DNA of 29,972 bases from IMG/VR virus record IMGVR_UViG_3300026196_000019, positions 1 through 29,972 of that record; one strand, 5' to 3'. The notes under the pieces were generated by a model, which saw only the letters and a list, made by a program, of their open reading frames with translations, made no database searches and was not told where the DNA came from. The position numbers and the translations under genes are program-made. The DNA comes from a virus (Duplodnaviria > Caudoviricetes). This document shows positions 1 to 22,262 of the stretch, piece by piece; position 1 is the first letter of the stretch, and the number at the start of each line of letters is the position of its first letter.

Positions 1-3000
1 TTCTGATCACCCTGAACATAGTGCGTTTCGGCGGTGGTAGGGTCATACGCCAGCGTGCTTTTGTCCTTCGGGTTCCCCGGCGCATCCACATTGTAGAGGT
101 GTAGGGTCTTCCCGTTAATATCCCATGGGGCGTAATACTCCAAGGATTCAGCCGGTACGTTGTGACGCTTGGCTATGTCGGCGCGGGCGGCGGTGTCTAT
201 TTCTGGGGATACCGCTTCGGACATGGAATATCTGGAAGGGCGAATGGGAAGAGGGACTTCCCCTGAAAAAAATCTCTTTATGTCATTGATGACCCTGGTT
301 GCGGGAATGCCTTTGTCATACTTTCTCGAGAAAGACCGCGCTGGGGACAAATAATATTGGTCTTTAAGTTCTCCAAGCCCATCTTCAAGGTCAACAACAA
401 CCTCTCCTTTGTGCCGGTCTATAATCTTTCGGATAACTCGGTATTGCTCAGGGGTAGGCTCTTTGGCGATATCCATAGACCCGGAATTATCATCCATTCG
501 GATATACCCATAAGCCATGAGCTCTTTCATTCCCCGCGCCCCCCCGGCCTCGCGGTGATCGTAGGAGCGGGTTCCAGGTTCCCCGCCCTCGCTCTTTCCT
601 GACAGGTCTATCATGGAGCCATCTTTAGCAATATATCCAGCTTCCCTCAGATCGTTGGTCTTCCCAAGCTCTTTAATCCGCGCCCACTCAATATTCTTAA
701 AATCCTTCTTAGATTTAAGGGTCGTTTTTCTTTTTTCTACCGTCGCCTTGGCTTTTCGATAGGCCTTAACCCAATCCTCATTGACCAACTTCCCGTTTCT
801 TTTTTCAATTAATCCCTTTACGTCTTTACCGCCCCTGACATCGTACCCCATGGATTTCAAGGTTTTGTTCATGTTCGCCAAAACCTCTTTGGTAAGCGTT
901 TTCGTGTCTATAATCTTTATTGTGGCTTCGGACATCGTGTAGAGGGGCGTTGTCATTCCTCCGCCTATTGGGGGTTTTCCCCATTCCTTCCGGCTCATCT
1001 CCCAAGGTTCCTTCCCCTCCACCTTCCCGGCGTCGGGTGCTTCCCCCATCTTCGCCTTTGCGTTGTCAACTGACCGTTGGACCATATCAAGGTACGCCTG
1101 GTCACGTTTTTTCCCGTTGAACATCCCCGATTTCAGGATTTGTTCACCCTCTGCGATACTGTTCTTGATCTCTTGTATCTTAGCCGGGTCGGTTTCGACT
1201 TTATTCCCGGCGTCGGGTGTGGTGGGCTTTCCTTCAAGCGGTATCTCGGTCAACTTTCCGTCTTTGCCTGAGAAAGTGAGGGACTTGAAAACAACCTCTT
1301 TTCCTTCAAACGATTTATCCCCAATGTATTTCTTGCCTTCCCCTTTCTTGACATAGGCGATGGTAGCGTGTGGCTTATAATCAGGGTATGTGTCGGTGAC
1401 CTTCAGGTTATCGGCAATCTTTTTATTGAGAGCATGGAGTTCAGAGCTTTCGATATCCACCTTGACAACATCATAGGCATCGGATTCAAAAATAGACACC
1501 TTGCCCATTTTTGCGGTAATCGGCCCTTGGCCGGAAAGAAGTGGTTCAACCTCTTTAGGGTCCACGGTATCCAATCCGTATTTGACGGTTATGTGGGGTT
1601 CTTCTTCTCTTCCGTATGATGGGTCTTTCGGGTCTTCGTAAATTTCAGAATCAGGTATTTTCTTACCGAAGGATTGAAGGGCTTTAGATTCCTCTTTGGG
1701 GATGTCAACCTGTGTGCTGCTGAAGTCGTGAACCTGGCCCTCTGCCTTTTCCTTAACCTCTCCCCCCCATTCCCCGTTCTCGTCGATCCTCGCGCCCTTC
1801 GCTGCCTCTGGTGGGGGTTCTGGTGCCATGTTCTCGGGTGACGCGGCTGGTTGCTCGGGTTGCTCCCCTAACTGCTCTGTATTGCCAATCGTAGATTCGC
1901 CTATATACGGTATTGCGTCTTCGATACGACCACCAGGGAATTCAGCATCAAATAGCTCTGGGTTGGTTACGAGTTCCGCAAGAACAGCAGGGTCGTACTC
2001 TGCCATGCGTTGGGCTTGGGTTTCTCTGGCTAATTTTGAAGCATCTTCAAGAGCTTTTGCTTGTTCCTTTTGCGCCTTTGATACCCTGTCTTGGATACGC
2101 TTCTGCTCATCAGGCGTAAGGAATTGCGATTTTAGCAGGGATTCGTATGTGGTTTCGGTTTCTGGGTTAAGGATGTCTTGTGTGTATTCATTGATGGTGG
2201 TATTGCGTTTCAGTTTGTTTAGAGCGTCAATAGTTCTGTCTGCCGCTTTTTGGTCTTCTGGTCGAATTCCGGTTGTATCAATTTCACCTGATGCTTTTGC
2301 GAGCAGGCGTTCCTTTTTTATAGCTTTGGGGTCGGCTGGTGGGGGTGGGGTTGTTGTGTCTTCTGTCCCTTGTGTAACGTTCGGGACGGCACCACCTAAC
2401 CCAGCACCCATTAAGAAACCTTGAAGGCCACCTTCTATAGATGCTTCTTCTACTCCTTCCCAAATATCTTGTTCTGGATTAACAAACTTCTTGGTTTGAA
2501 TATTCTTTTCAAGGGCCTCATATCCACTTTGGGGCGTTTCTTGTAGTAGCTCTGCTCCACCTGCTGTAGCCATTTTCCTTGCGATTCCACCAGTGGCTTC
2601 ACCGCCCATTATTTTTCCTATATAATGACCGGATACGCTACCAAGCAACCCCGTCATTCCAAAAACCATCGCGCCAGATTTAATGGCCGCATGGTCGGCT
2701 ACAAGTTCACGGGATTTCTTTTCTCTTTCCTTGTCCGAAAGACCTTCGCCATCAAGTCCTGCCCATGCTGTTTGATATTCCTTTGTTTTAGACAGCACAT
2801 CAATGGGTGCTTTCTCAACGAGGTCATAAACGTCTTTTCCAGCTTCAAAACCAGCTACAGACCCTTCACCTATAAATCCTCCGATTACACCGGCTAAACC
2901 TTTAGATATAGTACCGCTATTTACCAAAGCAGATTTTAGCAAATTCCCTGTTATAGCGGCTCCGGTTCCCATTCCTACCGCCGTGCTAGGTGCGGATTCT

Positions 3001-3623
3001 AAAAAGCTACCCGCTATTTTTGCTGGGCTTTTCCAGGCGTCACCTTGGAATAGGCTTTTAAACTTTTCAATAGGTTCATCGGACCATGTTGCGCCAGTAT
3101 CCTTGGTATATTTTAACTGCTCTGCTTTTCTCATAGCAGGGGATAATTCTGATCTTGTCTTTTTCCCTCTTTCCTTATAGTAATTTTCGGTCCATTGACC
3201 CAATGCGTCTAAGGCGCCTTCTCCGCTTTCTGTGAATAGCCGGGTAGGGTCATAATTCCCCGCAATATCAATAGCCCTTCCAACACTTTCACCGAAAGCG
3301 TCTAAACCTAGAGCTAATTTTCTTGGGTAATCTCCGAATGTTGTTCCTGCATCATCAACAGGCGCAACAGGCTCAGTATCCACAGGAGCCGGGGCGTAAT
3401 TCGGAGGGTCCTGTTCAAATTCACCGAACGCTGGCGCTTGCTCTGGTTCTGGATCAGGTTCTTCGTCGAACAGGTAGTCGAAATCCCAACCATTGTACGC
3501 CCTGCCACCGTCAGTAGGGTCTTCGTTTTGAGAAGACTCTCCGCCAAAGAGGGAATCAAAATCATACCCGTTATATGAATCTTCCTGTGAGTTATCAAAT
3601 AAATAGTCGAAATCGTATGCCAC
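1..3623 (-). CDS. Giant internal-virion (ejection) / large polyvalent protein, 3'-partial (>1207 aa); not in the supplied ORF track
   Basis: Manual translation: GTG at 3623 with GAGGT RBS upstream, frame open to the window edge (MAYDFDYLFDNSQEDSYNGYDFDSLF...GDQ). Gly/Ala-rich hydrophobic stretches in the N-terminal third, followed by several globular modules. Lies after the nozzle and two internal-protein-like genes. Confidence 0.9.
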   Translation of the reverse strand, partial: MAYDFDYLFDNSQEDSYNGYDFDSLFGGESSQNEDPTDGGRAYNGWDFDYLFDEEPDPEPEQAPAFGEFEQDPPNYAPAPVDTEPVAPVDDAGTTFGDYPRKLALGLDAFGESVGRAIDIAGNYDPTRLFTESGEGALDALGQWTENYYKERGKKTRSELSPAMRKAEQLKYTKDTGATWSDEPIEKFKSLFQGDAWKSPAKIAGSFLESAPSTAVGMGTGAAITGNLLKSALVNSGTISKGLAGVIGGFIGEGSVAGFEAGKDVYDLVEKAPIDVLSKTKEYQTAWAGLDGEGLSDKEREKKSRELVADHAAIKSGAMVFGMTGLLGSVSGHYIGKIMGGEATGGIARKMATAGGAELLQETPQSGYEALEKNIQTKKFVNPEQDIWEGVEEASIEGGLQGFLMGAGLGGAVPNVTQGTEDTTTPPPPADPKAIKKERLLAKASGEIDTTGIRPEDQKAADRTIDALNKLKRNTTINEYTQDILNPETETTYESLLKSQFLTPDEQKRIQDRVSKAQKEQAKALEDASKLARETQAQRMAEYDPAVLAELVTNPELFDAEFPGGRIEDAIPYIGESTIGNTEQLGEQPEQPAASPENMAPEPPPEAAKGARIDENGEWGGEVKEKAEGQVHDFSSTQVDIPKEESKALQSFGKKIPDSEIYEDPKDPSYGREEEPHITVKYGLDTVDPKEVEPLLSGQGPITAKMGKVSIFESDAYDVVKVDIESSELHALNKKIADNLKVTDTYPDYKPHATIAYVKKGEGKKYIGDKSFEGKEVVFKSLTFSGKDGKLTEIPLEGKPTTPDAGNKVETDPAKIQEIKNSIAEGEQILKSGMFNGKKRDQAYLDMVQRSVDNAKAKMGEAPDAGKVEGKEPWEMSRKEWGKPPIGGGMTTPLYTMSEATIKIIDTKTLTKEVLANMNKTLKSMGYDVRGGKDVKGLIEKRNGKLVNEDWVKAYRKAKATVEKRKTTLKSKKDFKNIEWARIKELGKTNDLREAGYIAKDGSMIDLSGKSEGGEPGTRSYDHREAGGARGMKELMAYGYIRMDDNSGSMDIAKEPTPEQYRVIRKIIDRHKGEVVVDLEDGLGELKDQYYLSPARSFSRKYDKGIPATRVINDIKRFFSGEVPLPIRPSRYSMSEAVSPEIDTAARADIAKRHNVPAESLEYYAPWDINGKTLHLYNVDAPGNPKDKSTLAYDPTTAETHYVQGDQ
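193..935. repeat. Degenerate 32-bp in-frame direct repeat (193-224 and 904-935) flanking one protein module
   Basis: GTGTCTAT-N13-GCTTCGGACAT at both sites, 711 nt (237 codons) apart; encodes MSEAxxxxIDT twice. Confidence 0.6.
1024..1219. repeat. Exact 16-bp direct repeat (1024-1039 and 1204-1219)
   Basis: TTCCCGGCGTCGGGTG twice, exactly 180 nt apart and in frame (encodes PDAG linker). Confidence 0.85.
1236..1730 (-). other. 2H phosphoesterase (Acb1-like) domain inside the giant protein
   Basis: Two HxT motifs about 75 aa apart: GREEEPHITVKYGL (His at 1595) and YPDYKPHATIAYVK (His at 1370), with the intervening VSIF..DVVKVDIESSELHALN pattern. Confidence 0.85.
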
Positions 3624-3635
3624 TGAGCTACCTCA

Positions 3636-5093
3636 TCAATACCAGCCGTAGTCTCCGCCTTCATCCATATTGTAATTGTCTGGGGATAACCTTTTGTCCT
3701 GCCAACTTTGAGCCTCCGCCCATTTCATACGTTCTTCCATCATTCGCTCTTCTTCCATCTGCCGCATCAGTTCTTCGTCTTCTGAAGCCAGTTCGGGTTC
3801 GTAATCTGGCGCATCCGAAAAACCCTCTGGCGTCAACCCACGCCGTGCGCCCCAATCTGAATTCCAAGCGTCCTTTGCTGAGTTAAGCCCCTCGCTAGCA
3901 CTTCCATACACATCCTGTGCCAACCTACCAACATCTCCGAAACCCTTTCCCTCGTACCCAGTGTAAGGTTCACGAACGGGCTCTTGGGGCGTAGGAGCAA
4001 GCGTCTTTTCAGGGACATAACCCCCAACATCGTAATTTTCAGGGTACTGTATTTTGCCGGAAACGGGGCCGTACCCAGACGCCCCTGCTTCTTGCGGTTG
4101 GGGGTCTGGTTTTGTTTCGGTTGGTTGAGCATCAACGGTATCCATCCCGTCCATCATACCTGGGTCAGAACTTCCGTAAGAAGGCCCTTTTTTACCAAAC
4201 TCCCCTTTAGTCATATCGTACAGGTCGCCAGGAGAAACTACTTTACCCGTTTCCCATGTATTAAATTTTCCAGGTTTCGGTCGTTTCGCAATGTAATTTC
4301 CATCGTCAGTAGGTTCAAATATCCATTGTTTGGGGTTGTCAGGGTTTCCTCCGGTGATTGCGATGGTTCCTTTCTTAGCGTCCCCTGGTCTAGCTTCCCC
4401 AGTAACTTCTATGGTTCCACCACCGTATTTTTCAGTCTTCTTGCCTTTCTTATCATCCTTATTGAATTGTTTCAGGACTGATTCGGCAATGGCACGGCGA
4501 ACTGACCCTGTTTGTGGTTGCCTACCTAGTTGGGCGTCAAACGCTGAAACCCGGCCAAGCGCCTGCTGTACCACCCAATCGTTCTTTTCTTTGGCGGTCA
4601 TCTTCTTTGCTTGTTCTGTGTCGGCGTCCCAATTATCAGGGGTTTCCGCTAACCCACTGTCAATCTGTTTCCTTATATCCTCAGCGTTGGCCATGACTTC
4701 TTTGCGGTAAGCGGCTTTAGATTTTTTGCCACTTTCATCTTCCGCAACGATAGAATCACGGTACTCTTTTTCAGCCGCGGCGCGGGCCTTGGCTTGCTCC
4801 CTCTGCAAACCCTCAATGTACTTGAAGTAGTCAGAAGCCCCACTACCATATATACCATATACCTTCGGGGCCATGGGGCTACTATCATAAGACGCGCTCA
4901 TCATGGACATTGAGTTGGGTTGCACGGTGTATCCGCCCATCGTGTTGGCAGGTCCTACGCTCCCGGTTGTTGGGGTAGACTGAACGTATTTTCTGGCAAA
5001 CGCCCCCCAACCCTGCCGCGTCGGTGGTACGCCCTTCTTTTTGGCGTACTTGATATATGCTTCCAGCATTTGTTGTTCTTGGGGTGTTGCCAT
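3636..5093 (-). CDS. Putative internal virion protein (485 aa)
   Basis: Long ORF with AGGAG RBS; low-complexity, charged-helical and Gly/Pro/Tyr-rich; lies between nozzle and giant protein. Function inferred from position only. Confidence 0.7.
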   Translation of the reverse strand: MATPQEQQMLEAYIKYAKKKGVPPTRQGWGAFARKYVQSTPTTGSVGPANTMGGYTVQPNSMSMMSASYDSSPMAPKVYGIYGSGASDYFKYIEGLQREQAKARAAAEKEYRDSIVAEDESGKKSKAAYRKEVMANAEDIRKQIDSGLAETPDNWDADTEQAKKMTAKEKNDWVVQQALGRVSAFDAQLGRQPQTGSVRRAIAESVLKQFNKDDKKGKKTEKYGGGTIEVTGEARPGDAKKGTIAITGGNPDNPKQWIFEPTDDGNYIAKRPKPGKFNTWETGKVVSPGDLYDMTKGEFGKKGPSYGSSDPGMMDGMDTVDAQPTETKPDPQPQEAGASGYGPVSGKIQYPENYDVGGYVPEKTLAPTPQEPVREPYTGYEGKGFGDVGRLAQDVYGSASEGLNSAKDAWNSDWGARRGLTPEGFSDAPDYEPELASEDEELMRQMEEERMMEERMKWAEAQSWQDKRLSPDNYNMDEGGDYGWY

Positions 5094-5102
5094 GTTGGTC
5101 TC

Positions 5103-5942
5103 CTATACGATGTGCAATCTTCCAGATGCGTCTCGGTAATATCGTGACCCACCTATTGAGCTTTTTACAACAGGTGCGCTAGTTGTCCCGCCGGAAGAAT
5201 ATGATGGCTGTTTGGCGTATCTCTGCTCAAGAATTAGACGTGTGCGCTCGGCCTTTGCCGCGTTAGACGCATCAATCCTTGCTTGATTCTGTTGACTTAA
5301 CGCGTCTTGCCGTGCTTGTGCTTGCGCTGCCAAATTCGCAGCGTCCTGCGCCTTGTTATAATCAAATTGATTTTGGCTAAGTAAAAGCTGTGCGTCACGG
5401 TAGTCCGAATCCTCTTTTAACTTTGCTGCCGCCGCAACTTGTAAAGCCGTAAACTGTGACGAATTTTGATCCAAGTTCTGTTTAAATTGTGATCCAGATT
5501 GGTCCAATCCTCTATCAAATTGTGAACCAGATTGCGCCAACTGTTTTTCATTGAAAGCATTTGATATTTCAAGTTTCTTCTGCTCCAAAGCCCGGTCAAG
5601 GGCCGCTTGTTCTGAAGCATTCGTTACCCTCAATTTATCAAGCTCGTACTGCCGTTGAGCCATGTCCCATGCTTGGTCAGCTTGTGTTTTCGTTAATGCA
5701 AACTTTTCAGAGGTTAACCCGAAATCCCTGGCCGACTCAGCTTTTCTATTCTCTTCTGCGGTCTTAGTGAAATCGAATTGCTCCTTGGCACTTTTAGCCT
5801 GTAACCCCGCTGCGTATTTCTGACGCATCATGTCAGACACGGTAGTAGGGCTATTTCCAACCGCACCGTACTTCCCCCCCAATGACCGCGTGACGTTCTT
5901 TTCCATTGTTCCAGGGGTAAGCCCCCATCCAGATAGTGCCAT
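5103..5942 (-). CDS. Putative internal virion/ejection protein, coiled-coil (279 aa)
   Basis: Start moved from 6047 to ATG 5942 (MALSGWG), which follows AAGGAGGA and avoids overlap with the nozzle gene. Gln/Ala-rich helical protein with 11-aa repeats (QSGSQFDRGLD/QSGSQFKQNLD/QNSSQF). Confidence 0.75.
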   Translation of the reverse strand: MALSGWGLTPGTMEKNVTRSLGGKYGAVGNSPTTVSDMMRQKYAAGLQAKSAKEQFDFTKTAEENRKAESARDFGLTSEKFALTKTQADQAWDMAQRQYELDKLRVTNASEQAALDRALEQKKLEISNAFNEKQLAQSGSQFDRGLDQSGSQFKQNLDQNSSQFTALQVAAAAKLKEDSDYRDAQLLLSQNQFDYNKAQDAANLAAQAQARQDALSQQNQARIDASNAAKAERTRLILEQRYAKQPSYSSGGTTSAPVVKSSIGGSRYYRDASGRLHIV

Positions 5943-5952: not shown

Positions 5953-8900
5953 TTATTCCGGCCTCTGCGGCATGAAGTCAATGGTGAAACCGTACAGTTC
6001 CATCTCGGCCCCCAGCAGATCCGAATCAAATTCAAATGCGAACTCATCCCCTGTTTGCGTTACGTTCAAAGCTCCTGACACCATGCCGTATCCAGTGTTC
6101 TCCAAGGATATGTCACCAGCGTCAACACCCGTTGTTATCCCATCAGGGTACACCGTCACCCCGGCTACAGCACCGCTGGTCGTGTCGGCCTTGCCTTTTA
6201 TTTTAATCCTTCTCAAAGTGCTTGAATAATTTAGCGCGTCAGAGATAGTACCTTGAAGTGGAGATAAGGGAGACGTTTTAAACTTATGGGTTATCTTCGT
6301 CCCCGAATCGTCCGTGCCGGTGTTCGTCCTATAAACGTACCCCAGAAAACCTCCTGCGTACGTTAGGGATTCATTGGAAGACCCGATCACGTCAAGCCCG
6401 CAATTAGCCGCAGCCCCCCTCTGATAAAGGCCGTACCATTCGTCCGTCAGGTAGCCATACACCAGTTCCCTGTTCAATACCGATTGTGTGCCGCTTCCGC
6501 TCATGTTCATAGGCACCGCGAAATGTACCGTCTTTTCTTCATGGTCCACCCACGCGTATGACGTGTCTATGTATTCAGGCTCTATATACGGGCCGGATGA
6601 GGCGTTGAAATAATCCGATATCGGGTCGCTGATGTTTAGAATCGTCGAACCGTCCGTCATATATATTCCGTCAGCCGCCATGAAAATGGCCGACCTCACA
6701 CGAACCTGATCGTCGAATATCCTTACGCCACTGTCTATGGAAAGCAAAGCTTTTGGAGCAATCGCTCCAACCTTGTCAGACACTAGAACTGCTGTAAACT
6801 CTGCCGGGTTAATCCCCTCAAGAAAGTACGTCTGGTAAGGGTTCTTGGTTGACACTATCGCTGAAGTACCCAGCATGGTAATGGCGTTAACCTCTCCGCC
6901 GCCGAATATCGGAAGTGTCGCCCCAGAATAAGGGCCGTTAAGAATATGCGCGTACCCCTGCTGAGAATAGTCCAGCGTTCCAGCGCCTTCCGTCCCAGGC
7001 CACCACAAGGCGTTATTGTTATAATTGATAACCCCGTCATACTTGGGAATCGGGTCCGGTTTAGAAGCGAACGATACCTCCCAAACGTCCACGTCTGCGT
7101 CCAGCGCAACGCTCCATGACAACTGATACCAAAAATACGGGGTTCTAAGACCCCCAAGAACCGATTTAATTTCCCTGAACGAATCCCCGTCCCATTGAAT
7201 CATGCCCGTTTGGGCTAGAGAATCCGTTCCGTTGCTGGTTCCATCGACAAGCTCCCCTACGGATACCCACGAATCCCCGTCCCAGTATTTTACCGTGACA
7301 ACCGTTGCATCACTGTTTATGTGATCAGGGGCCATGCGGATAACAATCCCCTGCGCCCTTTCGTCGAAGCCGACATAAAGCTCTGAATCAGTAGCTAACG
7401 AATCCAGTGGCATGACGTTCGTATCGGTTCCGTCTGTCACCTCTGCGGTGTAATCTGCATATCCGGCACCCTGATCCAGAAGTACGCCAGAAGCCAGGAC
7501 TTGATAGCCGGACCACAGGTTCGCTATTTCTCCCATGTCTTCGCTGACGGTCACTTGGTAAATGTTGACGCCACTTGAAAGATTCCCGCTAGGAGTTAGC
7601 TTGTACCAATAAAGATCGTCACTTGTGCCAGGAAGAACTCTTGGGGTTTCACCCGAAGGACCCTTGTCCCATGACATTTCCCCGGATTGTGCCAAAGTCG
7701 CCGCGCTGATTATCGTACCGTCCACAAGGTTCCCAACAAGGTTCCAGGTGGAAGAACTACCCTGCCAGTAATAAACGGCCATGGTTTCCGTTTCGGAATT
7801 AGGCGTTCCATCTATATAAAAGTGTATCGCATTAACGGGCCTTCTGAACCCGACATAAACAGGGTCAAAGGTGGATGCCGGGTACGGAATGTATCGTGTC
7901 GTAAGGCTATTCCTTACTTCCTCATACCCGTCCGTTACACTCAACCCAGACGGAGGAACGGCTACGATGCTGGTAAGAGCGTCGAACTGTACTGTTTCAC
8001 CGAGAGGGGTAGAGTTGCACCCAAGGTACAGGCGAACATACGCAGTGGTCGCTGGCGATATGGCGGTTGCAGAATACTGTACCCACGTCCCCACTGTCGG
8101 TTCGTTGTTTTGCGTGGAAGCGGTTTCAAGAACAGTGCTACCAGCGTCCAAGAATTGCATTACGTGGGACGGGAACGGACCCCCAGAAGTGGTCGCAATC
8201 TGTACGTCGTCAAATTCAACTGGGTTTAGAAAGTCTGTAGAAGGAGCTTTCGCCCCCAGGTACAGGCGCACATAAGCACAAAGAACGGGAGTCGTTATGT
8301 TCTCTGAATACTGCGTCCATGTCGAATCCGCAGGGTTATTCTCCTGTGTGTCGAAGGTGGAAAGAACCGCTTTTGCAGCGTTAAGGTATTGTATCACATG
8401 GGACGGGTTGGTCTGGGGATACGCTTCGGATGTTGGGGCGATGGTTATGTCGTCGAATTCGACTTTTACACCAATCGACGAAGAGTTTGACGCCAAATAA
8501 ACCCGTATGTAACTAGTGGTTGCCGGAGTTGTAAATGTCTTCTGATATTGGGTCCATGTCGAGGCTGTTGGGCTGTATGTATCAGTTGCCGGTGTTGAAA
8601 TTAACGCGTCACCTGAAGTATATGCTTCAACGGTTATTGCCGGTGTACCAGAGATGTACGTTACATGAAGCTCCGCTTTATCGCTTGGGCTATACCCAAA
8701 GTCATCGGCCCATCTAATTGCGCCTGTGTCGCTCGAATTATCCTTTGCAACCCAAGTTGCGGCATTGCCAGAAGACCATCCAGACCTTGATGTCACGGTC
8801 TGCAATATGGAGGAGATGTCATCAGTGTCATATTGGGTGTCCGCAGTTTGTGTTGGAACAGCGTCCTGGGCTACAGCAGACGTAAGACTAAGAGCTTCAC

Positions 8901-10425
8901 ACGCAGCATATGATGCGGGTTGGCTTCCAGAATCCGCATTTTCAAAATAATAGTTTAGGTTGCAGTCCGCGCCTGTTGAATCTATCTTAGCGGTATATTT
9001 AACATACGCATCAGTAATCTCAGACCCTTGCGGAACTGTTATATTCTTAAAAGAAACAAAACCGTTGTAACTAACACCAGAACTGTATTTGCCAAAGCCA
9101 AAACTTTGTTCATCATTAACAAAGCCTGATGCGCTAGTCCAAGAACCATCGTCGGCATCCGCTGTCGGGTAGTAGGTTCCTGATCCAGCCGCGCCAGTGT
9201 ATACCCAAAAAGTGACCGTGTATTCTGTATTCGGTTCGACAGTAATGTCTTGGTAGCCACCAGCGGTAGAACTGCTTGCAGTTGTATTCTGAACCTCTAA
9301 ATCCTTAGACCCCCCGTGAGGCGAAGTCGTACCGCTCGTCAGAGTAGCGTTGTTCTCCGTCCATCCCGTAGTCCCAGATTCAAAAGTTCCATTCGTAAAA
9401 GCATAGCTCTGATAAATACGATACGCCCAATAACTCAGGGTGTAGCCCGTAGAAGCACTTACAGCGATGTCCTGGTAAATCCCAGCACTCTCCGAAGACG
9501 CAGCCGTAGGCGTCACAACCGCATCGTAAGTACCTCCGTGCGGTGACGTACTCCCCGTGGTTGAAGTGGCGTTGCTGTTAGTCCATCCAGTAGGCGGTGT
9601 TCCCCCCGTCTCAAAACCGGAGTTGGTAATGGAAGACGTTACCAGTGAATCCCTTCTAGCCCAATAACTGATGGTGTATTCCACACCGGGGGCCGCTGCT
9701 ATGTCCTGGTAAATCCCAGCTGTCGGGTCCCCTGCTGCCGTGCTCGTTATTTCAACATCATACGTTCCTGCTTTGGGATCTGTTGATGCTGTTACAGCAT
9801 CCGCATCGTTCTCCGTCCAGCCTGTAGGTGGGTCTCCGCCCGTTTCAAAACCGTCGTTCGTTATAGAAATGCTAGAAGGAGTGGCACCACCGATAACGAT
9901 CTTAAACCCGTCAGGATAAGCCGTGCCGCCGGACCACGCTATGGGGTTCGTTCCGCTGGCGCTACCTACCCAGTCGTCTCCTATGGCGTCTGAGAACATG
10001 TCGCCTGAATCGGCCGTAAGGGTGGCTTTAACGGTCCCGAACGTGGTTCCGGTATCAGGGGGGTCGTTGGTGGCGAGGTACAGCTTATCGTTCGTCTGTG
10101 CCATAAAGCAACGTGTACCGAATGTCGGGTTCACGTACTGGTGTAAACTGTCGATAGCATACGCACCGATAGCGGTGGAATTGTTCTTCTCCATCCCACG
10201 CCTGGGGGACCAACCAGCGGATATTCCGGGGGCGGGTCTTCGCATGTTCGTAGCCGAAACGATAGATCCCGGCTCAAGAGCTATGAACGGAGCCACGCGG
10301 TTCAATTTTTTAGTGAACGCTACGCTTTTGGAAAGGATTGGAGAATTGTCAGGGAATCCGCCACTGTCTTGCGCCAAGGCAGGAACAGCCAGTATCAACG
10401 CTAATAAAATTAGTTTTTTTATCAT
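5953..10425 (-). CDS. Tail nozzle / tail-tubular-B-like protein with signal peptide and inserted carbohydrate-binding-like domains (1490 aa)
   Basis: N-terminal LNRV..F..LEPG....ATNM...W.PRRG pattern, C-terminal beta-propeller-like repeats (KVGAIAP, AIFMAADGIYMTDG, NISDPI) and terminal KFKT..LRRIKI..FAFEF segment typical of podovirus nozzles; adjacent to adaptor genes. Confidence 0.75.
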   Translation of the reverse strand: MIKKLILLALILAVPALAQDSGGFPDNSPILSKSVAFTKKLNRVAPFIALEPGSIVSATNMRRPAPGISAGWSPRRGMEKNNSTAIGAYAIDSLHQYVNPTFGTRCFMAQTNDKLYLATNDPPDTGTTFGTVKATLTADSGDMFSDAIGDDWVGSASGTNPIAWSGGTAYPDGFKIVIGGATPSSISITNDGFETGGDPPTGWTENDADAVTASTDPKAGTYDVEITSTAAGDPTAGIYQDIAAAPGVEYTISYWARRDSLVTSSITNSGFETGGTPPTGWTNSNATSTTGSTSPHGGTYDAVVTPTAASSESAGIYQDIAVSASTGYTLSYWAYRIYQSYAFTNGTFESGTTGWTENNATLTSGTTSPHGGSKDLEVQNTTASSSTAGGYQDITVEPNTEYTVTFWVYTGAAGSGTYYPTADADDGSWTSASGFVNDEQSFGFGKYSSGVSYNGFVSFKNITVPQGSEITDAYVKYTAKIDSTGADCNLNYYFENADSGSQPASYAACEALSLTSAVAQDAVPTQTADTQYDTDDISSILQTVTSRSGWSSGNAATWVAKDNSSDTGAIRWADDFGYSPSDKAELHVTYISGTPAITVEAYTSGDALISTPATDTYSPTASTWTQYQKTFTTPATTSYIRVYLASNSSSIGVKVEFDDITIAPTSEAYPQTNPSHVIQYLNAAKAVLSTFDTQENNPADSTWTQYSENITTPVLCAYVRLYLGAKAPSTDFLNPVEFDDVQIATTSGGPFPSHVMQFLDAGSTVLETASTQNNEPTVGTWVQYSATAISPATTAYVRLYLGCNSTPLGETVQFDALTSIVAVPPSGLSVTDGYEEVRNSLTTRYIPYPASTFDPVYVGFRRPVNAIHFYIDGTPNSETETMAVYYWQGSSSTWNLVGNLVDGTIISAATLAQSGEMSWDKGPSGETPRVLPGTSDDLYWYKLTPSGNLSSGVNIYQVTVSEDMGEIANLWSGYQVLASGVLLDQGAGYADYTAEVTDGTDTNVMPLDSLATDSELYVGFDERAQGIVIRMAPDHINSDATVVTVKYWDGDSWVSVGELVDGTSNGTDSLAQTGMIQWDGDSFREIKSVLGGLRTPYFWYQLSWSVALDADVDVWEVSFASKPDPIPKYDGVINYNNNALWWPGTEGAGTLDYSQQGYAHILNGPYSGATLPIFGGGEVNAITMLGTSAIVSTKNPYQTYFLEGINPAEFTAVLVSDKVGAIAPKALLSIDSGVRIFDDQVRVRSAIFMAADGIYMTDGSTILNISDPISDYFNASSGPYIEPEYIDTSYAWVDHEEKTVHFAVPMNMSGSGTQSVLNRELVYGYLTDEWYGLYQRGAAANCGLDVIGSSNESLTYAGGFLGYVYRTNTGTDDSGTKITHKFKTSPLSPLQGTISDALNYSSTLRRIKIKGKADTTSGAVAGVTVYPDGITTGVDAGDISLENTGYGMVSGALNVTQTGDEFAFEFDSDLLGAEMELYGFTIDFMPQRPE

Positions 10426-11099
10426 TTGGGAGCTTGCTCAATCGGTACATTATATAGCTCTTGCTTTAGAGCGTTGAGTGCTTCCATATACATGGTGTAG
10501 AATTTGTCTGACTCTGCGTATCGGTGTTCTTTTTTGTAGGCCATGGCTGCGGCGTACCAGAATGTTAGCGGCTGATATTCGTTGGGGAGGTCCCCGATAG
10601 TCTGGGACTGTTTGGAGAAATAGACCTTTACGCTGTCCCCGTTTTCTGCCGAAGTGGGGAGCGGAAATATCCCGATTTTATCATCAAAATGATAATAGTA
10701 AATCGGAGGACCGGCTTTCATGTGGGGGAGATCTGATATCTGAAACGGTTCGACTCTTTTCAGACCGATATATTCACCGTCAGGGTTAAGGTAGATGGCA
10801 CCCCATACCTTTACAATATCAGTCACACCGTCTGCACCGTTGGTTACCAGATCCGTGTACTCATATTGGCTTGTTACCAATAGAAACGTGTCTGTGTCCT
10901 GAATGCACAACGCCCGTGCTGAAATCGCTTCCGTCGCCTCTTTAATCCAGTTGCCAAGCTCCGTGTCGCTCCAGAAAGAAGCGGAGCTTTCGTTCAATAA
11001 CGCCCGAACTTGAGTGATTGCCGTGGTACTGGTGTAATAATCCGCCCCGTACACAGTCGTTGAAAACAACAGAACTAATATAACAAGAAGTTTCTTCAT
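10422..11099 (-). CDS. Head-tail adaptor-like protein with N-terminal signal peptide (225 aa)
   Basis: ITQVRALLNE..FWSDTELGNWIKEA, L...QYEY, IGIFPLP, LPNEYQPL..YAAAMAY pattern of podovirus adaptor / tail-tubular-A proteins; GAGGTG RBS. Confidence 0.8.
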   Translation of the reverse strand: MKKLLVILVLLFSTTVYGADYYTSTTAITQVRALLNESSASFWSDTELGNWIKEATEAISARALCIQDTDTFLLVTSQYEYTDLVTNGADGVTDIVKVWGAIYLNPDGEYIGLKRVEPFQISDLPHMKAGPPIYYYHFDDKIGIFPLPTSAENGDSVKVYFSKQSQTIGDLPNEYQPLTFWYAAAMAYKKEHRYAESDKFYTMYMEALNALKQELYNVPIEQAPK

Positions 11100-11987
11100 T
11101 CAATACACCTCGCTCATAAGCCTGACCGAACCGGGTACGTTTTCTATGGAGTTTTCCAGGTTAAGCATGGCGCTCATGAAAAGCCCCCTGTACCTTTGTT
11201 CCTGTGCTTCCATATTCACTTTCCGTTCAAACACCTTCCACGCCACGTAATTCTCAAGAAGGCTTTCCTGAAGGTGTTCTGGTATTCCGTGAGGTCGTGT
11301 CTTGGCTGTGAATTCGCTCCCTGCCGATTCGTCAGTGGGTGCGGGGGTTACGGTAATGTAGGAGTAATCCGTAGCGATTGCGGTAATGGTGAAGTCCGTA
11401 TTGTTGCTGGTGGTCCCTGTAAAATCTATGGTTTGACCCACAGACATCAACCCGAAACCCACGGAAGCAGAAGAGGCGCTATCCGAAATCCTACTACCTG
11501 TTTCAGCGAATGATATGGTGGACGCGGCGTAGGAAGTCATATTGGTTGGTTTTCGGTAATAATAAGCCGTGAGAGTCTCAGCCGTGGACGGATACCCCTG
11601 GTAATAGAGCTTTGTCCCCCTTACCGCAGCCACAAGCACCCTGTTCGTGCTGTCAAGGTTGGAATACATCCTGAGTAATTCCGTGAACGAATTCAATATC
11701 TGAACTTCCAGTTCGGTTGTGCTGCTAACAATATAATACAGGTCCCTTCCAAAGTCCGAAGGCAAGTCAATGTAAGGGTTCGCCACGCTGGTTTCCAGGT
11801 CGTAGTCGGTTGCAAGCTCAGATAGTGGTGACGAAAATACCTGAGTATTGTCGGGGAACGTAATAAACATTCCACCTGCAACGTGTCGTTGGCCTTGGTT
11901 CAAATAATCCAATAGTCTAGCGGATGAAAAAGCCGCGTCTTGGATTATTTCTTTAACTCCGGTAATTAGATCGGTTTGTTTTGCCAT
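11100..11987 (-). CDS. Second head-tail adaptor-like protein with an inserted beta-rich domain (295 aa)
   Basis: DLITGVKEIIQD..LLDYLNQGQ, IDLPSDF, YYYRKP, IPEHLQESLLENYVAWK pattern; Ser/Thr-rich insert at about 11302-11540. Confidence 0.75.
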   Translation of the reverse strand: MAKQTDLITGVKEIIQDAAFSSARLLDYLNQGQRHVAGGMFITFPDNTQVFSSPLSELATDYDLETSVANPYIDLPSDFGRDLYYIVSSTTELEVQILNSFTELLRMYSNLDSTNRVLVAAVRGTKLYYQGYPSTAETLTAYYYRKPTNMTSYAASTISFAETGSRISDSASSASVGFGLMSVGQTIDFTGTTSNNTDFTITAIATDYSYITVTPAPTDESAGSEFTAKTRPHGIPEHLQESLLENYVAWKVFERKVNMEAQEQRYRGLFMSAMLNLENSIENVPGSVRLMSEVY

Positions 11988-11998
11988 GTTTTATACCT

Positions 11999-14314
11999 TT
12001 ATTTCGGAACTGCCGTCTTACTTTCAACCCATGTTTTCATCCAACCCGGCATCTCAGGTGCTTGCAAATTCATGGCATCAACCTCTGCCTCGGTGCGGTT
12101 TCGCTTTTGAATGAATTTTCCGGTATCGGGATCAAACGAAATGTCCGCTTTCAATTGTTTTTTGAATTTCCCGGTCCCCTGTTTGATTGTAACAGGGGTC
12201 ATTTTTACTGTAACTGAAACTTTCCATCCTTTGTCAACAGCATATTTGAATCCATCCGCCTTTGGCTCAACTTGCACATCCTCAGTAATTTCCACAGGCC
12301 CAAAGGCATCCTGTGCCGCGATCTCTATTTCAACTGTTTCAGCTAATTTCGCTTCCCTGAGTTTAGCAAGCTGAACCGTATTCCAATCCTGCTTCACTAA
12401 ATCGACATGTCCAGGTTCGTCTTTTCGTCTGAGATTGTAAGCATCAAATGTTTCCTCTGTGATTGTTCCGTCAAGCGTTTGCCAAAATATCACACCTAAA
12501 TACGGTTGCACACGTTTTCCTATCCAGTCAAGTCCGGGGCCATTTTGATAAAGCTCCTGCGGTGCATCAAGCGGGTGAGATGAAATCTGTGTATCCGTTC
12601 CAGCATCGTCTGTGAAATAGAATTCATTAGGCGTTGCCGTTTTGACCCATGGTTGACCATAACCAGCGGTGTCCGCGTTAGCCGATGCCTGCTCTTTCAG
12701 ACTCATTGTGCCTTCGATTGTTAGCTTTTGGTTTGGGTCTTCAAGCCCTATCCCGACATTGCCAGATTCATCAATTCGCATGGCTTCCGCATTTTCAGTT
12801 TCAAAAGCCATCTCATTATCGTTTCCAGTTCTGATTGATGCAATCGAAACACTGTTTGATACTGAACTGGAATCAGTAGAGTTAATGAACCTTAATCTTG
12901 ATCCTGTTCCTGTATCTGTTGCATTGTTCCGTAATTGCAACCCATCATAGATAGAACCAGCAGATGTATCGACAATCTCTAAGGTTGTATATGGACTCAT
13001 TGTGCCGATGCCGACGCTGCCGTCGTTGTAATAAATATTGCTGCCCGTCTGGGTCCAAAGCCCTGCACCACCGGTCTGATACCAATTGCTGCCATCGCAT
13101 ACTAAAATCCAACCACCGTAGGTCGATGATTTAGTTTCGTCTTCTGCGCTTTCCAGATAAATATCCTGGTTCCCGGTTGATTCAGCGTTTTCAATGATCG
13201 CGTCGTTTGTCGCGTCTACGATTACGACATAAAGAACCTGATCAGCTACCCCGCCCGTGAACCCGCCTATCGTTACGTTGTTGTCACCGGTATCTATTTT
13301 GACCACATTAGCCCCGGACACGTCCAGATTATCCGTAGGCCCGGTTGCGGCAACGGTCGTCGAACCGGTCGTAAGCACCCCTGAAAGATCCAAGCTCGTT
13401 CCCGTTGCCTCGCCGATGTCACCATTCTGAAATAGATCCGCACCGGTTCCGCTTTCGTCGGTTAATGCGCTTCGGAGATTCGCGCTTGAGGGGGTGGCGA
13501 GAAATGAAGCTACGTTTGCCCCCAACCCGCTTACTCCGCTTGATATTGGTAGCCCTGTGGCATTTGTAAGGGTCCCACCTGCAGGGGTTCCCAAAGCTCC
13601 GCCTACGAAATATGCTGCTCCAGTTCCCACTTCATCGCTAAGAACTCCGCGAAGTTGGGCACTGGCGGTTGGGGCGAAAAATGACAGATTATCTGTAGCG
13701 TTGGGCACTGCGTTGGATGATTCTGTAATAGCACCAGACGCTAGAGTCCCAGTGGTACTTAAGTTTTCGTTATCAAAAGATATTGAACCCGATGAATCAG
13801 ACACGCTTCCTGAATCAATCGTAATTGTTCCAGCATCCACTTGACCGGAAGAATCAATAGAAGTTACAGTGGTTGCACCAGCACCCAGCGTCCCAGTGGT
13901 TGAAAGATTCTCGTTACCGAAAGAAATAGCGCCACTGCTATCAGTTATGGACCCACTCCCAATAGTCATTGTTCCTGCGTCCACAGTAGCGCTTGCATCT
14001 AAAGAGGTGGAAGATATTGCGCCAGTTGATATCGACGCAGGTGCAAATGCACCAGATACATTCAAATCACCAGTTATAGCGAAAGTTGCCGTAGTTCCAT
14101 CATCCGTGACAGTCAGAAACGTGTTTGTCCCATCCGATAATTCCAAACGGTTATCGGTGGTTTCGTCATAGGAGAGATAAAAATTGAGGTCGGTGCCAAA
14201 GATGAGAGAATAATCGTCAGGGATTAGTACCCCCTGGTCGTGGATTTCGTAATTGTCAGCACAAGCAACCGAAGCCCAAAACAGACTTACCATTATAATA
14301 AGGAATCTTTTCAT
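11999..14314 (-). CDS. Tail fibre-like protein with N-terminal signal peptide (771 aa)
   Basis: Gly/Ser/Thr-rich mosaic with 48-aa tandem repeat, LR..L(S/T)DE.GTGA repeats, W.L.CDGSNWY and GNVGIG/GSVGIGT fibre motifs; ATGA overlap with upstream stop. Confidence 0.8.
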   Translation of the reverse strand: MKRFLIIMVSLFWASVACADNYEIHDQGVLIPDDYSLIFGTDLNFYLSYDETTDNRLELSDGTNTFLTVTDDGTTATFAITGDLNVSGAFAPASISTGAISSTSLDASATVDAGTMTIGSGSITDSSGAISFGNENLSTTGTLGAGATTVTSIDSSGQVDAGTITIDSGSVSDSSGSISFDNENLSTTGTLASGAITESSNAVPNATDNLSFFAPTASAQLRGVLSDEVGTGAAYFVGGALGTPAGGTLTNATGLPISSGVSGLGANVASFLATPSSANLRSALTDESGTGADLFQNGDIGEATGTSLDLSGVLTTGSTTVAATGPTDNLDVSGANVVKIDTGDNNVTIGGFTGGVADQVLYVVIVDATNDAIIENAESTGNQDIYLESAEDETKSSTYGGWILVCDGSNWYQTGGAGLWTQTGSNIYYNDGSVGIGTMSPYTTLEIVDTSAGSIYDGLQLRNNATDTGTGSRLRFINSTDSSSVSNSVSIASIRTGNDNEMAFETENAEAMRIDESGNVGIGLEDPNQKLTIEGTMSLKEQASANADTAGYGQPWVKTATPNEFYFTDDAGTDTQISSHPLDAPQELYQNGPGLDWIGKRVQPYLGVIFWQTLDGTITEETFDAYNLRRKDEPGHVDLVKQDWNTVQLAKLREAKLAETVEIEIAAQDAFGPVEITEDVQVEPKADGFKYAVDKGWKVSVTVKMTPVTIKQGTGKFKKQLKADISFDPDTGKFIQKRNRTEAEVDAMNLQAPEMPGWMKTWVESKTAVPK

Positions 14315-14631
14315 GGTTGCACCAAATGCCTCAATGCCTTAAAAGTCCAATCGTCAGTCGGAACAGCAACCCGTACCCTGATTGTATTGATGTTTTTGTC
14401 GATGGTGAGTAAAACGGTGGATGGAACAGTGCCTATATCTTTGATACGGCGAATAGCTTGTGACGGGGTTGAACTGGCGGTTTCGTCCCAATCGCCACGC
14501 AATTCCCCCGCCCGGCTATTGGTTCCATCGCTTATTCGGAAATCCCATACCGCTGAAACTCCGTTCGTGTCGGCAAAGCTGTCCACCGTTGAAGTTCCTG
14601 CGTCAATCGACTCGCTTATCGGTGTTGCCAT
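14311..14631 (-). CDS. Hypothetical, probably virion-associated beta-rich protein (106 aa)
   Basis: ORF with AGGTG RBS, translationally coupled to the fibre gene. Confidence 0.7.
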   Translation of the reverse strand: MATPISESIDAGTSTVDSFADTNGVSAVWDFRISDGTNSRAGELRGDWDETASSTPSQAIRRIKDIGTVPSTVLLTIDKNINTIRVRVAVPTDDWTFKALRHLVQP

Positions 14632-14638: not shown

Positions 14639-15139
14639 CTAGTCTGTAGTAGTAAATTCAATTTCAGGACCGTAGCTCGTTCCTGCTGCATTTGTGGCAT
14701 AAGCCCGCACAAAATAACGGGTAGAGGCTGAAAGGCCCGTCAGGTTGCTTGTGAAGGTCCTTGCGCCCGTACCGTCAGAGGTTCTGTCATCATCCGTATC
14801 TGGGGCATGGTCGGTTGACCAGCAAACACCGTATTCCGTAACAGTCGCACCACCATCGTTCGTGATGTTCCCACCGCTTGCTGCTGTCGTAGCGTCAATC
14901 TCAGTAACCGCAACGGTCTCAAGCACGGTTGGGGTATAAGCACCTTCAGGTCTTGGGTCTCTTACCGTCTGGCGATCTGCTTTGGGGCGGACGCGATAAT
15001 CTTGGACGGGACGGGGGCCATCAAAGCATGTACCCCTATGCACGATGAGATTGTCCCACGTCTTTACCATTTCGGTGTTGTAGCCTTTCATGCCACAAAT
15101 ATCGCAGCATTGAAAAAAACGTCCAGAATAGAATGTCAT
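14639..15139 (-). CDS. Zn-ribbon (CDICG) phage protein fused to a fibronectin-type-III-like domain (166 aa)
   Basis: N-terminal CDICG..KTWDNLIV..C..P....D.RP; C-terminal SGGNITNDGG.TVTEYGVCWST...LTGL..STRYFVRAYATN.AGTSYG FN3 signature. Confidence 0.8.
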   Translation of the reverse strand: MTFYSGRFFQCCDICGMKGYNTEMVKTWDNLIVHRGTCFDGPRPVQDYRVRPKADRQTVRDPRPEGAYTPTVLETVAVTEIDATTAASGGNITNDGGATVTEYGVCWSTDHAPDTDDDRTSDGTGARTFTSNLTGLSASTRYFVRAYATNAAGTSYGPEIEFTTTD

Positions 15140-18418: not shown

Positions 18419-19330
18419 CTAAGCCGGACTCGACCCGAAAATGCCACGGGCGTCGCTCCAGCCGACTGCGTAACGGCTAGTCGCTTTAAACTTCGCGTTC
18501 TCCGTCTCCCAATCATTCTCAGTGCCGAAGGCGTCTTTACGCCTCTCAAACAATTTCATGCCGTGCATGGCATCGGTCTTGATAAACCAATTATTTGAGT
18601 CAGTTAAGAAATGATTTACAACGTATCCTTGAGGTATTTTACCTAACACCCTGATAGCGTTGATGTCGTTGTTCGCATTTCCGGGCTGCTGGATGCTCTT
18701 CAGAATCCTGGCCGCGTCAAACTCAAGCGCGGGAGGAATGATGAGCTTTTTGGGCAGGACCTTGATGGTCTTGCCACGGTCATCGGTGAAGGCCGCAATA
18801 TCAATGCAAGCCTGTTCCAATGCAGCGTCAGACAACTCAGCAGCGGTGGACAATTCGTTCCGCCACGTACCGCCCGATTTGTTTTTATGAGCCGTAGAAC
18901 AAAGCTCCAAACCGTCACCGCCCTCGTAGGACGCATTAAACGCCCGGTTGAGGACGTTGGCACACACGATCTCCCGTGTTTGCCTGATTGAAAACGCCAA
19001 AGACTGCGCCCGGTTAAGGCCAATCTCGGAGTATTGGTTGTCATCGTACATATTGCGCGTGATGATAAAACCTAACCCATAGGTCACATGGGTATATCTG
19101 GACACGAAGCCCTGTTCCATATCATCAAACGTAATCCCAGCGCCTTCAGGCACCACCGCAGCCAAGCCGAAGCCGGTTACGCCGATGTCCTCTTCAAAAG
19201 CCTTGGAACTGGTGTACTTGTCGAATATCTCAGGCCATTCCGGTGAGTATTCGTTGTACGCTTTCCCATAAATCGCATTGATCCCCGGCCACAGCAGTTT
19301 TGCGAAGGAGCCAGTAGTAATCGTTCCCAT
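18419..19330 (-). CDS. Major capsid protein (303 aa)
   Basis: FAKLLWPGIN, SSKAFEE, RYTH.TYGLGF.IT, A.VLNRAF..GGDG..L.ST.H, LIIPP.LEF.A.RIL.S, VNHFLTD...WF, WSD.RGIFGS motifs; follows scaffold and cement genes; GGAGG RBS. Confidence 0.93.
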   Translation of the reverse strand: MGTITTGSFAKLLWPGINAIYGKAYNEYSPEWPEIFDKYTSSKAFEEDIGVTGFGLAAVVPEGAGITFDDMEQGFVSRYTHVTYGLGFIITRNMYDDNQYSEIGLNRAQSLAFSIRQTREIVCANVLNRAFNASYEGGDGLELCSTAHKNKSGGTWRNELSTAAELSDAALEQACIDIAAFTDDRGKTIKVLPKKLIIPPALEFDAARILKSIQQPGNANNDINAIRVLGKIPQGYVVNHFLTDSNNWFIKTDAMHGMKLFERRKDAFGTENDWETENAKFKATSRYAVGWSDARGIFGSSPA

Positions 19331-21506: not shown

Positions 21507-21806
21507 TCATTTCACCCTTGCTACAACGTCCTCGTCATTCAGGATTCTCAGATTTCCGTCTTTCCGTTCCACAAGGAACCCGCCGTACTTCGCAAAAACG
21601 ATTGTATCCCCAACGGCCAAATCATCCCCATCAAACTGGATAGAACAGGAAGGGCCTATGGCCACCACCTCGCCCCTATTAACGGCGTTTTGTTCCTGGT
21701 CTCTGGTGCTATCGGGGAGGTATATCCCGCCTTCAGTTTTCTGTTTGATCTCTTCGGGTTTTACGATTAGCTTATACCCTTCTGGTTGCAACTCTATTTC
21801 ACTCAT
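21507..21806 (-). CDS. groES: Phage-encoded co-chaperonin GroES (99 aa)
   Basis: L.P.G..LIVKP, KTEGGIYLP mobile loop, GEVVAIGP, VGD..VFAKYGG, RILNDEDVVA. Confidence 0.95.
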   Translation of the reverse strand: MSEIELQPEGYKLIVKPEEIKQKTEGGIYLPDSTRDQEQNAVNRGEVVAIGPSCSIQFDGDDLAVGDTIVFAKYGGFLVERKDGNLRILNDEDVVARVK

Positions 21807-22026: not shown

Positions 22027-22262
22027 CAGGCACCACCGTACAGTCTGTTCTTTTGCGCCATGCGTTGTGCTAGAATCTGGTCATGTAATAGACCCAACCG
22101 CTTTTGCTCCATCTGCTTGTTGAATCTTCGGTTGCCGGGGTCAGGAGGGGTCATGCCGTATTTGTTCTTGAGCCATTCCAGGAACGCTTCTTCCATACCA
22201 ACAGACGGTTTGCCTCTAACTTTGGTCCTGTCCATGCTGTTCTCATACGGGTTTAATGGCAT
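22026..22262 (-). CDS. Hypothetical protein (78 aa)
   Basis: Stop/start overlaps with portal and with the next gene fill the gap exactly. Confidence 0.65.
   Translation of the reverse strand: MPLNPYENSMDRTKVRGKPSVGMEEAFLEWLKNKYGMTPPDPGNRRFNKQMEQKRLGLLHDQILAQRMAQKNRLYGGA

Follow-up and report, generated by a model that had tools for sequence, protein, structure and literature searches.

The particle of tailed phages is, to our knowledge, regarded as assembled entirely in the cytoplasm. The closest described counterparts of the tail genes reported here are those of phages SU10 (gp11 and gp17), A4 (gp32 and gp31), T7 (gp11 and gp12), and P22 (gp4 and gp10), with which they share the adaptor family (PF24175), the gene order, and, from structural modeling, the nozzle fold. 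The available parts of the published descriptions place a single adaptor dodecamer between the portal and the nozzle in SU10, A4, and T7 (PMC9509320, PMC12002296, and PMC6702177), and in T7 the adaptor keeps the portal stable in its open state and DNA is retained by the nozzle gates (PMC6702177); the term "signal peptide" does not occur in the available part of the A4 text (PMC12002296). Unlike SU10, A4, and T7, the uncultured short-tailed phage represented by the window (the whole stretch of 29,972 nucleotides analyzed) has two adaptor genes, and some relatives, including L005, L021, and L027, have three. A second difference from SU10- and T7-type tails is that everything beyond the first adaptor carries a predicted export leader. 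A literature search found no description of tailed-phage tail parts with such leaders, and no cultured phage with a leader-bearing tail was found.

Organization and identity of the tail genes

The window and its twin record (G001) together give ∼41 kb of a genome that CheckV estimates at close to 73 kb (35.8 kb being scored as 49%), with the head and tail genes arranged as in Table 1. The first adaptor is, by gene order, the putative portal-proximal ring (ring 1), and the second adaptor (ring 2) would lie distal to it. In G001 the last internal protein is 2,876 aa long and is followed by four further small late leader-bearing genes, and the late operon ends in two small membrane proteins. The N-domain orthologues of the fiber (P0108, P0109, and L006:7155-9029) are likewise leader bearing. 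The leaderless 106-aa protein is possibly a cytoplasmic fiber socket. Its nearest named Atlas family is Mtd_N at 0.79, a weak lead.

Table 1. Genes and predicted leaders in the window
Feature	Coordinates	Strand	Support
Three putative internal (ejection) proteins, leaderless; last runs off window	3..5942	-	
Nozzle (tail tubular protein B type), 1490 aa, inserted CBM_4_9-like repeats, predicted Sec leader	5953..10425	-	PF02018 x3
Nozzle leader, 18 aa, predicted cut ALA/QD	10372..10425	-	26/30 homologues pass heuristic
Second (distal) adaptor ring protein, 225 aa, predicted Sec leader	10422..11099	-	PF24175 E 3.1e-14, 54.3 bits vs cutoff 27; phrog_399
Adaptor-2 leader, 18 aa, predicted cut VYG/AD	11046..11099	-	Heuristic and homologue alignment
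First adaptor ring protein, 295 aa, leaderless, ~75-aa insertion	11100..11987	-	PF24175 E 4.9e-10
Tail fiber, 771 aa, predicted Sec leader	11999..14314	-	phrog_9942, phrog_18345 tail fiber, E ~8e-10
Fiber leader, 19 aa, predicted cut ACA/DN	14258..14314	-	Heuristic
106-aa leaderless protein; stop overlaps fiber start	14311..14631	-	94% / 80% identical in L004 / G003
Minor virion protein with Fn3 domain, leaderless	14639..15139	-	phrog_6977; PF00041 below cutoff
Major capsid protein, leaderless	18419..19330	-	phrog_371, PF25209; 55% identical to Alcaligenes phage vB_Af_QDWS535
Portal, leaderless	22262..24385	-	phrog_1216 E 3e-27
Terminase large subunit	25514..26845	-	phrog_2, PF03237

The preliminary description had named the leader-bearing genes as tail parts, and these identities hold, with ring 2 an SU10-type adaptor and the 1,490-aa protein a nozzle. 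PF24175 is above its cutoff for both ring proteins, and weak sequence matches of the adaptor in the PDB (E 0.004-0.02) are chains of portal adaptors and of tail tubular protein A. The C-terminal core of the nozzle aligns with nozzles annotated as "stabilisation protein" (hhalign probability 90.7, E 1.3e-6, 226 columns). The fold was modeled on orthologue P0085, which is 59% identical to the window nozzle over residues 1100-1490, and not on the 1,490-aa window protein itself; the model has a pLDDT of 86.8, with residues 1-25 at low confidence and a good body, and its best Foldseek matches are podophage tail chains (A4 9k09_U, E 1.4e-19; SU10 7z4b, E 3.7e-18), with further matches to tail chains of Pa223, VP1, crAss001, P22, and T7 (TM 0.3-0.5). 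The predicted structure of this orthologue has the platform and beta-propeller fold of a nozzle.

Predicted leaders in the window

The three leaders lie where they were originally placed, on the minus strand, and the proposed starts are well backed, with the ATGs of the nozzle and fiber overlapping the upstream stop (ATGA) and that of adaptor 2 following the stop of 11987-11100 with GAGG 11 nt upstream. The claim that the adaptor domain begins right behind the predicted cut is borne out too, as PF24175 (SU10_adaptor) matches from residue 25 (profile position 4) with the cut at 18/19. Leaders were called with a self-written heuristic requiring a positive n-region, an uncharged 9-residue h-region of mean hydropathy ≥2.2, and a small residue at -1, which is passed by 11 of 6,639 internal pseudo-starts (0.17%). 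Of 28 genes called on the minus strand of the window, four pass, these being nozzle, adaptor 2, fiber, and gene 28238-27924; the portal, capsid, scaffold, cement, head fiber, first adaptor, and internal proteins fail, as previously described. Gene 28238-27924 codes for a single-membrane-helix protein and lies outside the structural block. The most hydrophobic 19-residue segment is at residue 1 in nozzle, adaptor 2, and fiber, and the mature parts of the three have no strongly hydrophobic segment beyond the leader.

The n-regions have a mean charge of +1.8, 66 of 68 adaptors have G, A, V, S, or C at -3, and a small -1 residue followed by conserved A/T-D/E/S is present in all 68, although the search itself required the small -1. 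Over the first 10 residues of the mature part, the net charge is zero or below in 62/62 adaptors and 26/28 leader-bearing nozzles, but 7 of the 14 leaderless nozzles have a positive value. By their n- and h-regions, -3/-1 residues, and nonpositive early mature region, the leaders fit predicted Sec/signal peptidase I (SPI) signal peptides. Tat and lipoprotein (SPII) signals were considered and rejected, with no twin-arginine motif or lipobox cysteine in any of 62 adaptors or 28 nozzles.

Conservation among relatives

The heuristic is passed by 62 of 76 adaptor-2 homologues, and the 14 misses comprise six with starts called inside the leader, one just under threshold, and seven leaderless sisters at 31-39% identity, six of which start at the alignment column of mature residue 3-4. 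Compared with the window sequence, the leader is 30% identical and the mature part 65% (60 adaptor comparisons); the letters of the leader vary, but the Sec/SPI pattern is kept. Of the four nozzle misses (Table 1), one has a visible leader, one is 5′ truncated, one has a late start call (its cluster mate P0268 has a leader), and the last carries a long extension that closes with a hydrophobic stretch. Among 31 loci selected because their adaptor or nozzle bears a leader, leaders are present on 34/35 ring 2 proteins, 22/23 nozzles, and 0/13 full-length ring 1 orthologues, an abrupt change from ring 1 to ring 2. Exceptions occur among the fibers, with G005 and L005 having leaderless genes at fiber-like positions.

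The trait is not rare, being found in dozens of relatives, in two clades of leader-bearing adaptors, and in tails borne on several head types. Among the best 150 adaptor clusters (50% identity) 53 are leader bearing, a proportion that may be favored by the leader columns in the search profile. Leaderless relatives, which the preliminary description regarded as evidence against export, do exist, both among adaptors at 31-45% identity and among many relatives by head genes, but the nozzles there are leaderless too. Because nozzles are leaderless wherever adaptors are, the leader state switches for the whole distal module. On this comparative evidence, the leaders are real, and a large clade conserves them on one set of genes, ring 2 and nozzle and usually the fibers.

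Proposed assembly route and alternatives

Since the outer tail parts have predicted Sec/SPI leaders, they are likely made outside the cytoplasm. The reading that we favor, at somewhat better than even chances, is that export carries the distal tail out of the cytoplasm and that it meets the heads once lysis has opened the inner membrane. The second adaptor ring, nozzle, and fiber, along with the four small late proteins, would likely be exported over the host inner membrane with their predicted leaders cut off, and ring 2, nozzle, and fibers may then preassemble in the periplasm; heads with the portal and first ring would likely be filled in the cytoplasm, and the periplasmic tail halves would dock on ring 1 when lysis breaks the membrane. 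The DNA-sealing and -releasing channel is predicted to be made with the inner membrane between it and the head and, if so, assembly is split over two compartments, heads must hold DNA without a nozzle, and the last step of maturation depends on membrane rupture or on a crossing step of a new kind. As nozzle gates hold the DNA in T7, heads that wait nozzle-free must be closed by something else, and no such seal was found. Candidate benefits are the prevention of early tail capping and the hiding of nozzle and distal adaptor from the cytoplasmic sensors Avs13 and Avs12, which raises the idea of an antidefense strategy in which sensed structural proteins are moved beyond such receptors; the sensor-evasion rationale is limited by the leaderless, predicted cytoplasmic ring 1, portal, and capsid.

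An unlikely alternative is that filled heads meet the exported tail parts before lysis, docking at or crossing the inner membrane so that virions mature in the periplasm, perhaps with an unusual exit. It draws on the same leader evidence, it solves the DNA-retention problem, and no lysin is detected by Pfam in the ∼41 kb of the window and twin record; if true, it would give a widespread head-tail phage group a membrane-spanning morphogenesis or egress route. However, we know of no way for a head to pass an intact membrane, and no accessory gene, and no membrane or pore gene, is common to the leader-bearing loci. The complete relative G005 (62,246 bp, CheckV 100%), with two leader-bearing adaptors and a leader-bearing nozzle, also keeps an ordinary Amidase_2 endolysin (E 2.8e-16) that has no leader, together with a lipoprotein gene and a holin-like gene of 61 aa. 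The unusual egress proposed in the preliminary description is weakened by these lysis genes, and its alternative, that the parts are kept apart until lysis, fits better than nonlytic egress, with the lysis evidence resting on G005, which has another head and another adaptor clade than the window.

It is improbable that the leaders are nontranslocated membrane tethers, with the tail built on the cytoplasmic face and cut free later. Head and tail would then stay in one compartment, and T4 proheads offer a precedent for membrane-bound assembly, but positive residues before and acidic residues after the hydrophobic stretch predict an N-in/C-out orientation, the h-regions are short with small residues at -3 and -1, and signal peptidase cuts on the outer membrane face.

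Slightly less probable again is that each gene yields two forms, a leaderless cytoplasmic one for virions and an exported one acting as a decoy or superinfection block. Phages do export nonvirion proteins with cleavable leaders, such as T4 RI and Spackle, and a Met is near the cut in 4/28 nozzles, but this is so in only 2/62 adaptors, codons 3-32 of the three window genes have no in-frame ATG, GTG, or TTG with a Shine-Dalgarno-like word, whereas the real starts have such words or stop-start overlaps, and the late operon, followed from terminase to its last gene, shows no additional nozzle gene that lacks a leader.

A similarly small chance, if anything a shade smaller, attaches to export serving glycosylation or disulfide bonding by host periplasmic enzymes. 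N-x-S/T occurs 38 times in the seven leader-bearing proteins of this genome versus 27.8 ± 4.6 expected (6 of 500 shuffles as high) and is enriched 1.19-fold in 30 leader-bearing nozzles, but the ratios are similar without a leader (1.11 in 6 nozzles; 1.16 in 26 virion proteins of the same clade), the adaptor-2 ratio is 0.88, the extended D/E-x-N-x-S/T motif gives 0.93 and 0.12, and cysteines per 100 aa are 0.41 to 0.82 in leader-bearing sets versus 0.75 to 1.17 in leaderless sets, with relatives not being independent samples. Neither rationale is supported by these sequence counts.

That the leaders are artifacts of wrong start calls or chance hydrophobic N termini is largely refuted and very improbable, for although the calls come from a home-made heuristic only, its chance rate is low, the leaders are conserved in dozens of relatives, the starts are coupled, and the boundary is all or none.

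Comparison with known systems

The closest cultured head module is that of Alcaligenes phage vB_Af_QDWS535 and the HTVC023P/CRP-901-type phages, with a portal 37% identical and, as in the window phage, a GroES gene in the head block. These phages differ in having one adaptor and a short nozzle, and 0/22 of their late open reading frames pass the leader heuristic; a search of 50,697 phage records gave no match to the window adaptor 2 or to two nozzle homologues.

Virion proteins with cleavable leaders are familiar from filamentous phages, in which M13 pVIII and pIII are handled by the host export machinery, keep a membrane anchor, and assemble around single-stranded DNA during extrusion. The window phage, in contrast, is a double-stranded DNA head-tail phage with no membrane helix in the mature nozzle, adaptor 2, or fiber. 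The T4 antiholin RI and Spackle are described, in the available parts of the sources, as exported nonvirion proteins with cleavable leaders (PMC8385771 and PMC7650644, respectively), and together with signal-peptide endolysins and spanins they likewise represent Sec/SPI leaders on phage late genes. These proteins act in lysis or exclusion and not as the particle's DNA-exit channel, and an assembly of tail and head in two compartments would likely be unlike that of the tailed phages studied so far.

Leader-bearing genes of the late operon

A minus-strand late operon of a tailed phage fills the window, in the order terminase, portal, GroES, scaffold, cement, capsid, head fibre, small genes, fibre, two adaptors (rings 1 and 2), a 1490-aa protein (the nozzle), and internal proteins. 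The preliminary description placed leaders on nozzle, ring 2, and fibre, and all three are present at the coordinates it gave, as is the claimed start support: in nozzle and fibre the start codon shares bases with the preceding stop, and a GAGG word precedes the ring 2 start. Codons 3 to 32 of all three genes lack a Shine-Dalgarno-backed in-frame start. Leaders are called by a home-made heuristic (positive n-region, uncharged 9-residue h-region with mean hydropathy of at least 2.2, small residue at -1). Four of the window's 28 called genes pass it: nozzle, ring 2, fibre, and, away from the structural genes, a membrane protein with a single helix. The background is 11/6639 internal pseudo-starts.

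The twin record G001 (locus L003), identical to the window across the 1500 bases compared, extends the operon further. Its four added leader-bearing genes and two small membrane proteins have no homologue among the compared loci; the 127-aa protein has an Fn3-like domain. The putative ejection protein contains an LPD38 domain and a 2H-phosphoesterase (Acb1-like, PF23474 above cut-off), by sequence possibly an injected anti-CBASS enzyme.

Features of the window and of related loci
Feature	Location	Remarks
Nozzle	window 5953-10425 (-)	1490 aa
Ring 2	window 10422-11099 (-)	225 aa
Ring 1	window 11100-11987 (-)	
Fibre	window 11999-14314 (-)	771 aa
Endonuclease VII/HNH	window 17476-18303	after capsid gene
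GroES co-chaperonin	window 21507-21806	head block; common to many head relatives
Acb2/Tad1 hairpin protein (PF24729)	window 24466-24993	lies in the terminase-portal interval; L083, L090, L094, and L102 have one too
Putative ejection protein, 2876 aa	L003:6422-15052	its start is window 3-3623
Four leader-bearing late genes (144, 256, 127, 100 aa)	L003:4446-6325	beyond window position 1, 3' of the 2876-aa protein
118-aa single-helix and 58-aa membrane proteins	G001	after the four leader-bearing genes; possibly holin-like
ORFs between rings 1 and 2	L022:728-1603; L023:2589-3320; L026:542-1423	unrelated ORF, inserted
Leader-bearing fibre-like genes	L098:13433-14804; L100:12225-19006	
Caspase-like peptidase C14	G005:46602-47459 (L131:1102-1959)	lysis block, between endolysin and lipoprotein

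Conservation of the leaders

The heuristic passes 62/76 adaptor-2 homologues and 26/30 nozzle homologues. Among the 14 adaptor misses, the start is called within the leader in six and the score is borderline in one; the other seven are leaderless sisters (31 to 39% identity), six of which start at the column of mature residue 3 or 4. The four nozzle misses trace to one leader that was missed, one truncated sequence, one start called late, and one long extension. Identity to the window adaptor is 30% in the leader versus 65% in the mature part. Net charge over mature residues 1 to 10 is zero or negative in 62/62 adaptors and 26/28 nozzles and positive in 7/14 leaderless nozzles, and neither Tat nor lipobox motifs occur in the 62 adaptors and 28 nozzles checked. 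Three orthologues of the fibre N-domain also have leaders. The leaders are real, conserved, and borne by essential tail parts; in all sequence tests run they are consistent with Sec export and signal peptidase I cleavage, and the proteins bearing them are very probably exported.

Identity of the tail proteins

The tail parts have known folds. PF24175 (SU10_adaptor) is above cut-off in both rings, and its ring 2 alignment begins directly past the predicted cut. Family searches gave no match to the core of the 1490-aa protein, whose predicted nozzle fold is read from its C-terminal part, which aligns (probability 90.7, E 1.3e-6) to nozzles annotated as 'stabilisation protein', and from a model of the compact orthologue P0085 (pLDDT 86.8, low confidence at residues 1 to 25), with top Foldseek matches to tail chains of A4, SU10, Pa223, VP1, crAss001, P22, and T7. 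The fibre has hits in two fibre families of PHROG. Nozzle residues 185 to 830 (approximately) form a variable array of CBM_4_9-like repeats. Homologue lengths vary between 843 and 1649 aa, and receptor binding may thus be a second role of the nozzle.

Ring 1 of the window clade has an insertion of roughly 75 aa at about residues 150 to 225, and L007 has a similar-looking one at a different position. Tandem pairs of leader-bearing adaptor paralogues (L005, L021, L027, L123, and L126) suggest three stacked neck rings; extra domains are fused to the adaptor in L126 and several cluster representatives. The ORF inserted between the rings in three relatives resembles a homing endonuclease, as judged by its start only.

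The boundary between the rings

Among 31 loci picked for a leader-bearing adaptor or nozzle, in which counts reflect co-occurrence and not prevalence, leaders are on 0/13 full-length ring 1 proteins, 34/35 ring 2 proteins, and 22/23 nozzles. The preliminary description asked whether relatives carry leaders on the same gene subset, and ring 2 and nozzle do so in these loci. In L079 the adaptor passes, and the nozzle, with a longer hydrophobic N-terminus, fails. Relatives lacking leaders, which the preliminary description would count against itself if close, do exist, both as the adaptor sisters and as capsid-found loci, but a leaderless ring 2 goes with a leaderless gene at the nozzle position (L009, L010, L036, L042, L044, L051, and L061). 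A capsid-gene search found 26 loci (15 annotated); the seven reaching the adaptor and next gene all have leaderless tails, and two further head relatives, L098 and L100, have leaders on fibre-like genes, with adaptor and nozzle outside the view. Other head types are combined with leader-bearing adaptors and nozzles in L113, L114, L116, L121, and L123.

A proposed assembly across the inner membrane

Export would mean that the inner membrane separates the two particle halves as they are made, with the split falling between ring 1 and ring 2. T4 heads, tails, and fibres can join spontaneously in lysates. We lean slightly toward membrane rupture at lysis as the simplest route by which the halves would join. 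The main difficulty is DNA retention, since in T7, as described in PMC6702177, the adaptor holds the portal open, with the DNA kept in by gates in the nozzle. This difficulty keeps alive joining before lysis, with heads docking at the membrane, which we regard as improbable.

As to why parts would be exported, Avs12 and Avs13 are reported to detect portal adaptor and tail nozzle in cells (PMC13581612), and export could hide these proteins from such sensors, although ring 1 remains inside. Glycosylation or disulfide formation is not supported, as sequons and cysteines lack specific enrichment.

Spread and history

An adaptor profile gave 2951 matches among 1.84 billion cluster representatives, with leaders in 53 of the best 150 (51 under a strict rule). 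Adaptor trees built without leaders (IQ-TREE, 52 rows; FastTree, 103 rows, being 99 of the best 150 passing a length and motif filter plus 4 added) both place the leader-bearing adaptors in two separate groups, and the one holding the window adaptor is nested among leaderless adaptors. The starred branches require at least two changes of leader state; with the root at the midpoint, two gains are possible, and so is an old gain followed by losses.

Lysis genes and comparison with known phages

Holin and endolysin genes were a proposed check. Pfam finds no lysin among the ORFs scanned from the window, G001, and G003, records that are 49% and 68% complete. Of eight loci from a motif scan, five, including one pair of twins, have leader-bearing adaptors and nozzles. 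One of these, G005 (CheckV 100% complete), has an Amidase_2 endolysin gene without a leader, together with genes for a lipoprotein and a holin-like protein of 61 aa. By this gene set, at least one such phage infects a walled bacterium and likely lyses it. G005 has a P22-like portal, and its adaptor belongs to the other clade, not the window's. L098 encodes a phage lysozyme. A host search found none.

Titles and abstract starts, a coverage that mostly excludes subscription papers, yielded no description of leaders on core tail proteins, and the predicted split of assembly was likewise not found described; 'predicted signal peptide' is absent from nozzle and adaptor papers among the matches listed, and the signal peptide mentioned in PMC8951688 belongs to an endolysin. 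Among cultured phages, Alcaligenes phage vB_Af_QDWS535 has the head closest to the window's; its late genes are without leaders.
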